From Escherichia coli (GTDB taxonomy: Bacteria > Pseudomonadota > Gammaproteobacteria > Enterobacterales > Enterobacteriaceae), in assembly GCF_030384885.1 (NCBI RefSeq), contig NZ_CP128613.1: a DNA stretch of 64,000 bases, one strand, 5' to 3'. Below, in pieces: positions 18,257 through 22,576 of this stretch. Numbering within the stretch: position 1 is the stretch's first letter; every line of letters starts with the position of its first letter. A program made the position numbers and the translations under genes. Under the pieces are notes generated by a model. That model was not told where the DNA came from. It was given only the letters and a program-made list of their open reading frames with translations, and ran no database searches.

Positions 18257-19690
18257 GTGACTTTCTTTGATTTCTGGGGAAAAACCCGACGTGGCGAGAA
18301 AGAGGGTGGCGACGATTATCACCTTCTTTGCTGGCATTCGCTGGATGTAGCCGCGATAGGCTATTTAATGGTCAAAAACAACTGTTTCGGGCTGGCTGAC
18401 TATTTTCGTCAATTAGGTTTCGCTGACACGGATCAGGCAGCACAATTTTTCGCCTGGTTGTTGTGCTGGCACGATACTGGAAAATTTGCCCGCTCATTTC
18501 AGCAACTTTACCTGCACCCACAACTCAAGGTTCCGGAAGGCGCAAGAAAGAATTACGAAAAGATCTCTCATTCAACGCTGGGTTACTGGTTGTGGCATCA
18601 TTATTTAATTGAATGTGAAGAGTTGCTTCCTTCATCTTCACTCTCTTTGCGCAAACTTAAACGAGTAATAGATATGTGGATGCCCGTGACGACCGGGCAT
18701 CATGGTCGGCCTCCTGACCGTATCGATGAACTGGACAACTTTCTGCCTGAAGACAAAGCTGCCGCACGGGATTTTCTCCTTGAAATCAAGGTACTGTTTC
18801 CGCTCATCGAGATCCCTACATTCTGGGATGATGACGAGGGCGTTGAACTTATAAAACATTTTTCCTGGTATATCTCTGCAACCGTCGTACTCGCAGACTG
18901 GACGGGATCGTCAACGCGGTTTTTTCCACGCGTTGCACAGGCAATGGATATTAAAGATTACTGGCAGAAGGCTTTAGTTCAGGCTCAAAACGCATTAACC
19001 GTCTTTCCCCCAAAAGCAGAAAGCGCGCCTTTCACTGGAATTAATACGCTGTTTCCTTTTATTGAGAACCCAACACCGTTACAGCAAAAGGTGTTGGATC
19101 TGGATATCAGCCAGCCAGGACCACAGTTGTTTATTCTGGAAGATGTGACTGGCGCAGGTAAAACAGAAGCGGCGCTTATCCTGGCGCACAGGTTGATGTC
19201 TGCGGGGAAAGCACAGGGTTTGTTTTTTGGTTTGCCAACAATGGCAACGGCCAATGCCATGTACGATAGGCTGGTAAAAACCTGGCTTGCTTTCTATTCG
19301 CCACAATCCCGCCCCAGCCTGGTGCTGGCACACAGCGCTCGTTCGCTAATGGATCGCTTTAACGCATCGCTGTGGTCTGGTGATTTTGTGGGGTCAGAAG
19401 AACCGGATGAACAAGCGTTCAGTCAGGGATGTGCGGCCTGGTTTGCTGACAGTAACAAGAAGGCGTTGCTGGCTGAAATTGGCGTCGGCACGCTGGATCA
19501 GGCGATGATGGCGGTGATGCCGTTCAAACATAATAATCTGCGGCTTCTGGGGCTGAGTAACAAAATCCTGCTAGCCGATGAGATCCACGCCTGTGACGCT
19601 TATATGTCGTGCATTCTTGAAGGGCTGATCGAGCGGCAGGCGCGTGGCGGAAACAGCGTTATTTTGCTTTCTGCTACGTTGCCGGGGTAG
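18257..19690 (+). pseudogene. cas3: Truncated cas3: N-terminal HD nuclease plus start of helicase domain, about 477 codons of an expected roughly 890
   Basis: GTG start; HD-domain N-terminus (HLLCWHSLDVAA...WHDTGKF), Walker A GAGKT and LLSATLP motifs; ORF stops at 19690 and a cas5e fragment begins 57 bp later. Confidence 0.85.
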
Positions 19691-19746
19691 GGATACGGCG
19701 TGATGACACCGAATGCTTAAACGCGTTTAATCGCCACTATTCACTG

Positions 19747-20304
19747 GTGGTTTGCGCCAGCCGTAACCCGCGCTGGGCACGGGATTATCACACGGTCCAG
19801 ATGCCAAAAGAGGTGCGTAAAGCGCGTTATTTCAGCCGTCGCGAAGAGTTGAGCGCCCCTGATCTTCTAAGCGCGATTATCTCCCGGCGCGACTACTACA
19901 CCGATGCCTGGTGGATGGTGGCCGTGGCAACAACAGCTGATGCGCCTTACAGCCTCGAACAGTTGCAGGAAGGTTTACGCCATCCGGTTTTTCCGCTTTA
20001 TCTGGGGCGAAAAAGCCATCCGCTGGCATTACCCCTTGCGCCGTTACTGCTTGAAGGTAACGCGTCTGATGCCTTACGTAACGCATACCAACAGTATCAG
20101 GATCGTTTCCACGAACTGAAAGTCTCACTCCCGAAACTTCAGGATGAATGCTGGTGGGAAGGGGAGCACGATGGCCTGGTCTCGAGCAAAATATTACGCC
20201 GCCGGGATGTTCCTTTAAATCGTCAGCAGTGGCTGTTTGGGGAACGCACCGTCAATCAGGGGCCGTGGCTCAGCAAGGAGGAACCATGTACCTCTCAAGA
20301 ATAA
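19747..20304 (+). pseudogene. cas5: C-terminal fragment of cas5e (casD), N-terminal portion missing
   Basis: Contains RDYHTV and YLGRKSHPL-type Cas5e motifs; ends overlapping the cas6e start as in intact I-E loci; no SD before the first in-frame GTG. Confidence 0.7.
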
Positions 20305-20936
20305 CCTTACATACCGGCCAGCTTTCGCCTGCGCAGTTACTGCATCTGGTGGATCGCGGTGAATATGTGATGCATCAGTGGCTGTGGGATCTTTTTCCTG
20401 GCGGCAAAGAAAGGCAATTTCTTTATCGTCGGGAAGAACTCCAGGGCGCGTTTCGCTTTTTTGTCCTGTCGCAGGAACGCCCGGCGGAAAGTGAAATGTT
20501 CACCATCGAATGCCGGTCATTTGCGCCGGAGCTGCGTACCGGACAATCCCTTTGTTTCAACCTGCGGGCGAATCCAACAGTCTGTAAAGCGGGTAAGCGC
20601 CACGATCTGCTGATGGAGGCGAAACGGCAGGTGAGGGGGCAGGCGGAAGGAAGTGATGTCTGGTTGCATCAACAACAGGCGGCGCTGGGCTGGCTGGCTG
20701 CGCAGGGAGAGAGAAGTGGTTTTACACTGCTGGATACCTCGGTCGATGCCTACCGACAACAGCAACTGCGGCGGGAAAATGCCCGGCAACTGATCCAGTT
20801 CAGTAGCGTGGATTATACGGGGATGCTGACGGTCACCGAGCCAGGGTTATTTCTGCAACGTCTCTGCCTGGGGTATGGCAAAAGCCGGGCGTTCGGCTGT
20901 GGTCTGATGTTAATCAAACCCGGAGCAGAGGCGTGA
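20286..20936 (+). CDS. cas6e: CRISPR pre-crRNA endoribonuclease Cas6e / CasE (216 aa)
   Basis: ATG 20286 after strong SD aaggagg; N-terminus MYLSRITL typical of CasE; C-terminal glycine-rich loop GYGKSRAFGCGL. Confidence 0.88.
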   Translation: MYLSRITLHTGQLSPAQLLHLVDRGEYVMHQWLWDLFPGGKERQFLYRREELQGAFRFFVLSQERPAESEMFTIECRSFAPELRTGQSLCFNLRANPTVCKAGKRHDLLMEAKRQVRGQAEGSDVWLHQQQAALGWLAAQGERSGFTLLDTSVDAYRQQQLRRENARQLIQFSSVDYTGMLTVTEPGLFLQRLCLGYGKSRAFGCGLMLIKPGAEA

Positions 20937-21856
20937 CGTTTGTACCACTGAGTCCGATCCCATTAAAAGATCGCACCTCCATGATCTTCCTCCAGTACGG
21001 TCAGATCGACGTACTGGATGGCGCTTTCGTGCTGATCGACAAAACAGGGATCCGCACGCATATTCCGGTGGGATCGGTCGCTTGCATAATGCTCGAACCA
21101 GGAACGAGAGTTTCCCACGCGGCGGTGCATCTGGCCGCCACGGTGGGGACACTGCTGGTCTGGGTCGGTGAAGCGGGCGTTCGCGTTTACTCCCCCGGAC
21201 AACCTGGAGGGGCGCGGGCAGATAAATTACTCTACCAGGCAAAGCTGGCTTTAACGGAAGATCTACGGTTGAAGGTGGTGCGCAAAATGTATGAATTACG
21301 TTTTCGTGAACCACCGCCAGCTCGCCGTTCAGTGGAGCAGCTACGGGGAATTGAGGGAGCCCGAGTACGCCAGACCTATGCATTACTGGCGAAGCAATAT
21401 GGTGTGAAATGGAATGGTCGCAACTACGATCCTAAAGACTGGGAAAAAGGCGATGTTGTGAATCGCTGCATCAGTGCTGCCACATCATGCCTGTACGGTA
21501 TATCTGAAGCGGCTGTATTAGCCGCGGGATATGCGCCCGCTATTGGTTTTATCCATAGTGGCAAACCGCTTTCATTTGTTTATGACATAGCCGATATCAT
21601 TAAATTTGATTTGGTTGTGCCAAAGGCATTTGAAATAGCGGCGAGGCAACCCGCAGAACCAGATAAAGAAGTCAGGTTGGCCTGTCGCGATATTTTCCGT
21701 AGCACTAAGTTAACGGGCAAATTAATCCCGTTAATTGAGGAAGTCCTTGCCGCCGGTGAAATTGAACCACCACAACCCGCGCCGGATATGTTACCGCCAG
21801 CTATCCCGGAACCTGAAACGCTGGGTGATAGTGGTCACCGGGGGCGCAGCGGATGA
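20933..21856 (+). CDS. cas1: CRISPR integrase Cas1 (307 aa)
   Basis: GTG start overlapping the cas6e stop; sequence closely resembles E. coli Cas1. Confidence 0.92.
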
Positions 21857-22146
21857 GCATGGTCGTGGTTGTTACAGAAAATGTCCCGCCGCGCTTACGT
21901 GGACGGCTCGCGATCTGGCTACTGGAAGTGCGTGCTGGTGTTTATGTTGGTGATACATCCAAACGTATTCGGGAGATGATCTGGCAGCAAATCCCCCAAC
22001 TGGCAGGTTGCGGAAATGTGGTCATGGCCTGGGCGACCAATACCGAGTCGGGTTTTGAATTTCAGACCTGGGGTGAAAACAGACGTATTCCGGTGGATTT
22101 GGATGGGTTACGGTTGGTTTCGTTTCTTCCTGTTGAGAATCAATAA
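21853..22146 (+). CDS. cas2: CRISPR-associated Cas2 (97 aa)
   Basis: ATG overlapping the cas1 stop; [20 protein letters not shown]-terminus characteristic of E. coli Cas2. Confidence 0.92.
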
Positions 22147-22242
22147 GTTACCCGTTCTTTAAAAATAAGGAAATGTTTGAATTTAGTTGGTAGATTGTTG
22201 ATGTGGAATAAAATTGTTTAAAAACAGATACGTATGCTTAGT
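22147..22242 (+). promoter_or_regulatory. AT-rich CRISPR leader between cas2 and the first repeat
   Basis: AT-rich, contains agttggtagattgt shared with the other leader. Confidence 0.65.
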
Positions 22243-22576
22243 GTGTTCCCCGCGCCAGCGGGGATAAACCGAATACCCAGCGCTATTTCGAGCGCGAGAG
22301 AGTGTGTTCCCCGCGCCAGCGGGGATAAACCGGAAATTTCGGAAATTAAATCCGCTCGCGATCGGTGTTCCCCGCGCCAGCGGGGATAAACCCCATGGCA
22401 GGAAGAGCGGATGATTTAGGGGTAAGTGTTCCCCGCGCCAGCGGGGATAAACCGAAGCCGGATCACATTTTCTTAGCGGAGCTGACGTGTTCCCCGCGCC
22501 AGCGGGGATAAACCGCTCTCGGTTCTGGGGTACTGTTACCCATAACTGAGCTCCCCCGCGTCAGCGGGGGAACTCC
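22243..22576 (+). CRISPR. Type I-E CRISPR array next to cas2: 6 repeats (GTGTTCCCCGCGCCAGCGGGGATAAACCG; third ends in C; last degenerate) and 5 spacers of 32 bp
   Basis: Repeats read at 22243, 22304, 22365, 22426, 22487 and degenerate at 22548. Confidence 0.95.

Follow-up and report, generated by a model that had tools for sequence, protein, structure and literature searches.

Between cysH and iap, the window (the whole analysed stretch of 64,000 nucleotides, from a strain of Escherichia cryptic clade I) contains a type I-E CRISPR-cas operon that lacks exactly 4,630 bp relative to the otherwise 100%-identical locus of a sister strain. Very probably, one illegitimate-recombination event excised this segment from inside the cas-E1 operon of a clade I lineage, with interference lost and the adaptation genes still intact owing to the recency of the event. 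The locus is an ordinary, recurrent kind of E. coli decay, and not a new system or mechanism.

Deletion junction and intact counterparts

The sister is E. coli 2013C-4282, which PMC10100065, with roughly 465 clade I genomes, assigns to clade I. Its complete genome (NZ_CP027579.1) carries the full cas3-casA-casB-cas7e-cas5e-cas6e-cas1e-cas2e operon. Its cas-E1 locus and that of SMS-3-5, also intact, occupy the same site as the locus in the window (cysH-hok/sok ... iap) and agree with it in gene order, repeat, leader and arrays; outside the deletion, the identity is 100% to the former and 93-96% to the latter. Relative to these intact loci, the window lacks 4,630 bp.

In the blastn alignments, window positions 15310-19681 correspond to positions 1-4372 of the sister locus, and positions 19680-28950 to 9001-18271, both at 100% and gap-free. 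Identity to the sister is hence complete over the 4,372 bp to the left of the junction and the 9,271 bp to its right, the two alignments overlapping by 2 nt and differing in offset by 4,630 bp; the absent segment is NZ_CP027579.1 4677679-4682308. The overlap (19680..19681, unstranded) is the dinucleotide TG, a microhomology shared by the two ends of the segment, one copy at cas3 codon 475 and the other at cas5e codons 41/42, and the crossover would have occurred between them. Neither inserted DNA nor an IS or IS remnant was found at the junction by blastn and a three-way alignment.

As a result, codon 475 of the 885 codons of cas3, just past helicase motif III, is joined out of frame to codon 42 of the 248 codons of cas5e. 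The removed segment encodes RecA2 and the C-terminal domain of Cas3 (residues 476-885) and further comprises the intergenic region between cas3 and casA, the genes casA/cse1, casB/cse2 and cas7e, and cas5e codons 1-41. The two arrays with their leaders, as well as cas6e, cas1e and cas2e, are spared. With the sister CasA, CasB and Cas7e as queries, tblastn revealed no homologues of these genes throughout the 64-kb window. Collinear flanks, two reading frames cut in the middle at one junction, and an identifiable ancestral state characterize a partial cas-E locus that arose by internal deletion, a category known from E. coli and Shigella, and the window shows all three.

A preliminary description, made from the sequence alone, had read the locus as type I-E, internally deleted and without its interference genes, and the blastn comparison with the sister, NCBIfam profiles and tblastn bear this out. 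The estimated loss of about 4-5 kb is now exact, the cas3-casA intergenic region, in keeping with the loss stated there of the usual promoter in front of cse1, lies inside the deletion, the suggested junction alignment yielded the TG microhomology, and cse1, cse2 and cas7 are absent as stated there.

Over 64 kb, the window differs from the sister by approximately 13 substitutions, and the deletion is the sole structural difference; in the 13.6 kb of deletion flanks there are no substitutions at all. Judged by these alignments, the deletion is a single, very recent event. The words "decayed" and "retained" of the preliminary description, if understood as a long process or as selection, do not agree with these numbers. 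In the collection with one genome per species, relatives of Cas1 come from E. albertii (97% amino acid identity) and other genera, and the flanks of the E. albertii locus are only about 91% identical to the window, too little for E. albertii to be the source species.

Remnants, remaining genes and arrays

The cas3 remnant (18257..19690, plus strand) is a 477-codon ORF, with the length and stop position given initially. It consists of cas3 codons 1-475 followed by two codons (Pro, Gly) and TAG, all three being cas5e DNA; since the joint is out of frame, cas3 ends after these two foreign codons. The product, 100% identical to residues 1-475 of the 885-aa sister Cas3 (tblastn), contains the HD nuclease domain and RecA1 through motif III "SAT", and its alignment to the structure 4q2c stops at ...LSATLP. 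In NCBIfam, it matches positions 6-481 of 878 in NF007248 (261 bits; cut-off 569), the whole of TIGR01596 (cas3_HD), and positions 2-166 of 358 in TIGR01587. A full-length Cas3 comprises the HD domain, both RecA-like domains and the C-terminal domain, and the remnant falls short of it.

The position of the GTG start (18257) is conserved, as the ORFs of E. albertii, Citrobacter and Phytobacter begin there. We considered whether cas3 had been dead before the deletion, given the PGAP label "frameshifted" on the sister cas3, and rejected this: the frameshift is an extra T within a 14-codon ATG extension that is not found in these three genera, and from the conserved GTG the sister ORF runs uninterrupted for 885 aa.

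The sigma-70-like site TTGTGA-16-TATTAT (18099..18126, plus strand), a candidate cas3 promoter that presumably drives cas3, is the only promoter-like site that the consensus scan places ahead of the cas genes still present, although the scan for promoters and terminators gave site counts no higher than in shuffles and hence is a weak pointer only. Rfam gave no match other than the hok/sok antitoxin RNA, which lies upstream of cas3.

The cas5e remnant (codons 42-248; 19681..20304, plus strand, in a frame different from that of cas3) is 100% identical to the sister Cas5e, matches positions 41-228 of 230 in TIGR01868 (casD_Cas5e) and contains the motifs RDYHTV and YLGRKSHPL. The 19747-20304 frame had been correctly assigned to Cas5e by these motifs, and the coordinates of the 57-bp gap preceding it hold, but cas5e DNA begins at 19680 rather than 19747, so that the "gap" after the cas3 stop is cas5e coding sequence without a start codon. 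The first in-frame start is GTG 19747, followed by ATG 19801, selected by a gene caller (167 aa). Since both lack a Shine-Dalgarno sequence, the remnant is probably not translated. With codons 1-41 gone and no start codon preceded by a Shine-Dalgarno sequence, this is not a complete cas5e.

The three genes that follow, all on the plus strand, are intact, and the product of each is 100% identical to its sister counterpart (tblastn). These are cas6e (20286..20936; 216 aa; AAGGAGG 5 nt before the ATG; TIGR01907 at full length, 278 bits against a cut-off of 45), cas1e (20933..21856; 307 aa; TIGR03638, 380 bits against 216) and cas2e (21853..22146; 97 aa; TIGR01873, 132 bits against 33). In an alignment to PDB 3nkd, Cas1e keeps the K-12 Cas1 active-site residues E141, H208, D218 and D221. 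The scans found no promoter-like site in 19690-20286 and no terminator-like site between the cas3 stop and cas6e.

Downstream, an AT-rich leader identical to that of the sister (22147..22242, plus strand) contains a promoter-like site, TTGGTA-16-TAAAAT (22187-22214, consensus scan), and no strict match to the IHF-site consensus, which by itself decides little. The array adjoining iap (22243..22576, plus strand) comprises five canonical 29-nt repeats GTGTTCCCCGCGCCAGCGGGGATAAACCG (22243-22515) and a degenerate terminal repeat (22548-22576), with five spacers of 32 nt; its five exact or near-exact repeats recur at 61-nt spacing, the chance expectation being 0 matches. The SD-equipped cas6e, cas1, cas2, the leader and the five-spacer array, all described initially as kept, are indeed identical to those of the sister. 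The second I-E array, between queE and ygcE (276..1219, plus strand; leader at 1-275), has 15 repeats of the GAGTTCCCC... type, a degenerate repeat and 15 spacers, and is likewise left without an effector. In repeat family (CGGTTTATCCCCGCTGGCGCGGGGAAC, 29 nt), spacer length (32 nt), period (61 nt) and AT-rich leader, the locus follows the E. coli type of I-E array.

The spacer content of both arrays is the same as in the sister, whose genome contains the 20 spacers in two places only, its own arrays. Among the matches listed in E. coli genomes, all are within CRISPR arrays and none falls on a plasmid in any complete assembly; the phage and plasmid collections yielded no match, near-perfect matches alone being detectable at the database size used.

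From established type I-E biology, Cascade would not assemble without Cse1, Cse2, Cas7 and a complete Cas5, and targets would not be degraded without the Cas3 helicase; we therefore infer that both crRNA-guided interference and primed adaptation are abolished, provided that no second effector locus lies outside the 64-kb window. Cas6e could still cleave pre-crRNA, and Cas1-Cas2 would in principle be capable of naive adaptation. A promoter in front of casA has been established in K-12, which has the cas-E2 variant, and is assumed for cas-E1; the deletion would have stripped cas6e-cas1-cas2 of this promoter region, leaving them behind the cas3 transcription unit only.

One sub-lineage of clade I is thereby marked as CRISPR-interference-null, while the near-identical 2013C-4282 keeps the full operon. 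The two strains form a natural near-isogenic pair, which would allow three questions to be addressed: the role, if any, of the native cas-E1 system in wild strains, natural spacer acquisition by Cas1-Cas2 on their own, and the stability of the HD-RecA1 fragment of Cas3.

Partial cas-E loci in other strains

Similar internal cas deletions are common in E. coli, and at least three, possibly four, independent alleles are seen in Escherichia. One of them, in which cas3 nt 1765 is joined to cas7e nt 173, is present in 195 of 5,426 complete genomes, e.g. UK_Dog_Liverpool and the WCHEC strains. Like the deletion in the window, it is internal to cas-E1, has a 2-nt microhomology at the junction, and keeps the 5' part of cas3 as well as intact cas6e-cas1e-cas2e and the array. 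Unlike it, this allele has lost 3.3 kb, spares cas5e entirely along with the greater part of cas7e, and belongs to a different lineage, at 92-94% identity. In E. coli TUM12355, cas3 is joined to cas5e as in the window, with a 4-nt overlap and the right end 47 nt from that of the window, whereas the deletion starts 570 nt deeper in cas3 and removes approximately 4.1 kb. The background also differs, and this deletion is an independent event.

Almendros et al. 2014 (PMC3903273) reported minor CRISPR2.1/cas-E arrangements from E. coli and Shigella, with partial or interrupted cas genes. They share the site and the category, partial cas-E loci, with the window, but are mostly ascribed to IS insertions or IS-mediated deletions, whereas the junction in the window has 2 nt of homology and no IS. 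Among pathogenic E. coli, a cas3 naturally truncated within its type I-E locus is also known from CS3-expressing ETEC with truncated cas3/cse1 (PMC6301781). These strains have a 785-aa Cas3, keep all Cascade genes (cas-E2 variant) and are reported to be phage-resistant, whereas the window has lost both the helicase half of Cas3 and Cascade.

Alternative explanations

If the loss of immunity was itself selected, the deletion would have opened the lineage to useful mobile elements such as Stx phages or virulence and resistance plasmids. In clade I strains, stx and further mobile virulence genes do occur (PMC10100065), and deletion alleles have become fixed in successful lineages, the 195 genomes with the cas3-cas7e allele being an example. 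Still, the spacers have no match in the phage and plasmid collections, which leaves no identifiable barrier that the deletion could have lifted, and the stx1-positive sister retains the intact operon. Besides, H-NS generally keeps the I-E systems of E. coli silent, so that neutral loss would suffice, and we regard selection against immunity as unlikely.

Escape from autoimmunity, suggested in the preliminary description, would imply that a spacer matched the chromosome, a prophage or a plasmid of the strain itself, and that cells with the interference genes deleted survived. Loss of interference genes is a known escape route from self-targeting in type I systems, the deleted genes are exactly the interference genes, and comparable losses have occurred in independent lineages. 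However, any internal deletion takes the middle genes, and the pattern needs no special cause. Moreover, the sister bears the same 20 spacers beside an apparently intact operon with an uninterrupted cas3 ORF, and the spacer searches in the sister, in E. coli genomes and in the phage and plasmid collections led, among the matches listed and within their reach of near-perfect matches, to CRISPR arrays only. The suggestion is thus unsupported, and such an escape appears distinctly improbable.

A broader version of these ideas would see the recurrent Escherichia deletions, which lose cse1-cse2-cas7 and the Cas3 helicase and spare cas6e-cas1-cas2, not as neutral decay, but as autoimmunity scars or a selected adaptation-only state, in which the remaining genes would be freed from the H-NS/LeuO-controlled casA promoter and fused to the cas3 transcription unit. 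We give it little credence, slightly less than to autoimmunity in the window strain.

Even less probable is that cas6e-cas1-cas2 in the window form a functional module under the cas3 promoter that still gains spacers without interference. The three genes are complete, with the Cas1 active-site residues intact and a good Shine-Dalgarno sequence before cas6e; the leaders are intact, and no terminator-like site separates the genes from cas3. If the module were active, expression or new leader-proximal spacers would be its sign, and of the latter there are none, both arrays having the same spacers as in the undeleted sister. In four genomes with the older cas3-cas7e allele, the arrays are the same apart from lost spacers or a point change: three of the four keep the leader-proximal end with a shared first spacer, and the first four spacers are missing from the other genome. 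Of the early proposal that Cas1-Cas2 suffice for naive acquisition, the intactness of the genes stands, with no sign of adaptation beside it. Since the deletion is very recent, with no differences in 13.6 kb, the intact adaptation genes are uninformative on selection. Their state is best explained, as far as these alignments tell, by recency, there having been too little time for decay, and neither the sequence nor the array comparisons give any indication of their upkeep or activity.

Finally, a short-read mis-join, which has nothing beyond general possibility in its favour, can practically be dismissed, as the same junction is present in contigs of independent data sets and involves only 2 nt of homology and no collapse-prone repeats. 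The initial concern over an assembly artefact is thus answered, and the deletion is real. The 27-nt junction has no match in the GTDB representatives (one genome per species), which says nothing either way, as clade I is merged into E. coli in that set. The exact 477-aa product, deposited as CAD6058416.1, is present on 8 contigs, and all three contigs whose DNA was fetched span the junction (GCA_036346665.1, 99.995% identical to the window over 21.4 kb, and the Logan assemblies of ERR12948940 and SRR34489103). The junction is a handy lineage marker.

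The interrupted cas-E locus

The cas locus of the window lies between cysJIH on one side and iap/cysDN on the other, where E. coli classically carries its type I-E (cas-E) locus. The preliminary description reported a type I-E locus without its interference module, and this is borne out at the stated coordinates by the ORF positions and the NCBIfam matches. The 477-codon ORF at 18257-19690 matches only the N-terminal half of Cas3: the HD domain is complete, the helicase core is covered at positions 2-166 of 358, and the NF007248 profile at positions 6-481 of 878. Next is a cas5e remnant, a frame ending at 20304 with Cas5e motifs and a match to positions 41-228 of 230 of the Cas5e profile. 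It is followed by three tightly packed genes with full-length NCBIfam matches, cas6e (20286-20936, AAGGAGG before the ATG), cas1e (20933-21856, with residues E141, H208, D218 and D221 all kept) and cas2e (21853-22146, intact).

A 96-nt AT-rich leader separates cas2e from the first repeat of the adjacent array, which consists of five exact or near-exact 29-nt repeats with a 61-nt spacing and a degenerate sixth ending at 22576 (5 spacers). The second type I-E array is situated at 1-1219 between queE and ygcE (leader, 1-275; array, 276-1219) and comprises 15 GAGTTCCCCGCGCCAGCGGGGATAAACCG repeats, 15 spacers and a degenerate terminal repeat at 1191-1219; repeat position 2 differs between the two arrays, the cas-adjacent one having GTG.... 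The second-array spacer at 732-763 is common to many E. coli genomes, K-12 included.

Two toxin-antitoxin loci were also seen. A hok/sok type I system (Rfam sok at 17725-17881, 104 bits; 50-aa Hok/Gef ORF at 17866-18018) is located between cysH and cas3, as in every E. coli locus fetched for comparison. Between hycI and ascB, at approximately 60702-61429, the annotation of E. coli 2013C-4282 places a HigB-family toxin together with an HTH antitoxin, the coordinates being transferred by alignment.

Ancestral state and boundaries of the deletion

Identity to the window across the cas region is only 93-95% for typical E. coli genomes and 100% for one complete genome, that of E. coli 2013C-4282 (NZ_CP027579.1; hereinafter, the sister). 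This stx1-positive strain has been placed among Escherichia cryptic clade I strains (PMC10100065). Its operon is complete, cas3-casA-casB-cas7e-cas5e-cas6e-cas1e-cas2e, followed by the same array as in the window. Window positions 15310-19681 correspond to positions 1-4372 of the fetched sister locus, and 19680-28950 to 9001-18271, both at 100% identity with no gaps; the two alignments share 2 nt (TG), with a shift of 4,630 bp between their offsets. Besides this single 4,630-bp deletion, the full 64 kb shows approximately 13 substitutions relative to the sister. The polarity of the deletion is unambiguous, as two genes are cut mid-ORF. The cas-E lesion is a recent, precisely mapped, microhomology-mediated deletion inactivating the interference arm of a clade I type I-E system.

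The left breakpoint follows codon 475 of the 885 in cas3, immediately past helicase motif III (...LLSATL); on the right, the sequence resumes in cas5e with the last base of codon 41, leaving codons 42-248. The two frames are mismatched, and the cas3 frame continues for two foreign codons (Pro, Gly) to TAG at 19688-19690, within cas5e DNA. The 57-bp interval initially noted after the cas3 ORF is itself cas5e coding sequence and not a spacer. The first starts in the cas5e remnant frame, GTG at 19747 and ATG at 19801, both lack a Shine-Dalgarno sequence. Comparison with the intact sister locus revealed no IS element or filler DNA at the junction. Lost with the deletion are the RecA2 and C-terminal domains of Cas3, the cas3-casA intergenic region, casA, casB, cas7e and the 5' end of cas5e; a search of the 64-kb window with the sister's proteins found no casA, casB or cas7e elsewhere.

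PGAP labels the sister cas3 "frameshifted", and we considered whether the gene could have been dead before the deletion. The label stems from a single additional T in a poly-T tract within a 14-codon ATG extension (window 18214-18257) used by other E. coli annotations of cas3. The homologues in E. albertii, Citrobacter and Phytobacter have no such extension; their start codon, GTG or TTG, corresponds to window 18257, where the GTG is preceded by AAGGA 10 nt upstream. From the matching GTG, the sister ORF runs uninterrupted for 885 aa. Thus, prior loss by frameshift is rejected: we take the pseudogene label to be an annotation artefact and the deletion to be the primary lesion.

The deletion is real and not an assembly artefact. 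The exact 477-aa Cas3 product (deposited as CAD6058416.1) is present on 8 contigs of public assemblies, and in all three contigs whose DNA was fetched the junction is spanned with 100% identity. One of the three is from NCBI GCA_036346665.1 (99.995% identity over 21.4 kb), and the other two come from Logan assemblies, of runs ERR12948940 and SRR34489103. The junction was found in none of 5,426 complete E. coli genomes, and it marks a small sub-lineage.

Residual function and the retained adaptation genes

From the observed structure of the locus, we infer the functional consequences using established type I-E biology. Lacking Cse1, Cse2, Cas7 and a complete Cas5, the strain would form no Cascade, and lacking the Cas3 helicase it would not degrade targets; interference and primed adaptation are expected to be abolished for both the 5-spacer and 15-spacer arrays. 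Pre-crRNA cleavage and naive adaptation could in principle still proceed with intact Cas6e, Cas1e and Cas2e. The cas6e-cas1e-cas2e genes no longer have the sequence preceding casA, which contains the operon promoter in the K-12 variant and, we assume, in the variant considered here. From the cas3 stop to cas6e, a site scan detected neither a promoter-like nor a terminator-like site, so any transcription of these genes would have to read through from the promoter region of cas3, where the scan gave a candidate site at 18099-18126.

The preliminary description noted the retention of the adaptation module. The genes are indeed intact, but the 13.6 kb flanking the deletion contains no substitution between the window and the sister. 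Decay has thus had no time to set in, and the intactness of these genes is uninformative on selection. The spacer content of both arrays is exactly that of the sister. In four genomes with an older, independent deletion allele, spacer loss and one point change account for all differences between the arrays; the three that keep the leader-proximal end have their first spacer in common, and the fourth is without its first four spacers. Thus, neither the window and sister arrays nor these four genomes show spacer acquisition after Cascade loss. Judging from these sequences, we do not think that the retained module is meaningful. The persistence of the 5' cas3 stub together with cas1-cas2 needs no special explanation, as a deletion confined to the operon must leave both ends.

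Escape from self-targeting, suggested earlier as a possible cause of the deletion, is improbable and has no support from the collections searched. The intact sister carries the same 20 spacers without harm, and its genome matches them at just two places, its two arrays. We searched all 20 against complete E. coli genomes and the phage and plasmid collections, where only near-perfect matches are detectable at this database size. Matches occurred in 945 complete E. coli genomes, none on plasmids; among the matches listed, 25 of 25 are in annotated CRISPR arrays, with no self-target among them. At this near-perfect level, neither the phage nor the plasmid collection yielded a match.

Comparable deletions

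Internal deletions of the cas-E1 operon, the variant present in the window, recur in E. coli. One allele (195 of 5,426 complete genomes) joins cas3 nt 1765 to cas7e nt 173, removing 3.3 kb with a 2-nt overlap (junction at 4876-4878 of the fetched locus); some carriers have an added IS421 or IS150 insertion. In E. coli TUM12355, cas3 nt 2038 is joined to cas5e nt 170, only 47 nt from the right end in the window, with a loss of approximately 4.1 kb and a 4-nt overlap (junction at 5800-5803 of that locus). Both alleles thus have 2-4 nt of microhomology and are independent of the window's deletion. In E. coli AR_0069 (NZ_CP020055.1, approximately 1000283-1000326), Cas3'' and cas2e fall under a single 44-nt match (hit H100), which suggests a still larger internal deletion directly joining cas3 to cas2e. 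Several more truncated Cas3 products, of E. coli and Shigella origin, fall in the 90% cluster of the Cas3 fragment.

Partial or interrupted cas-E arrangements at the same site were described by Almendros et al. 2014 (PMC3903273); these are mostly IS-mediated, whereas the window junction has no IS. Truncated cas3 and cse1 were reported in ETEC (PMC6301781). The window's deletion is a new allele within a well-known class of decay, and its general interest is low; it is useful mainly as a lineage marker and because the strain forms a natural near-isogenic pair with 2013C-4282.

A 4.5-kb contig (JAEWTL010000035.1) in a "Bacillota bacterium" MAG carries Escherichia-type cas6e-cas1-cas2 and an array, with 98% amino acid identity in Cas1 and 93% nucleotide identity to the window; binning contamination is the likeliest explanation.
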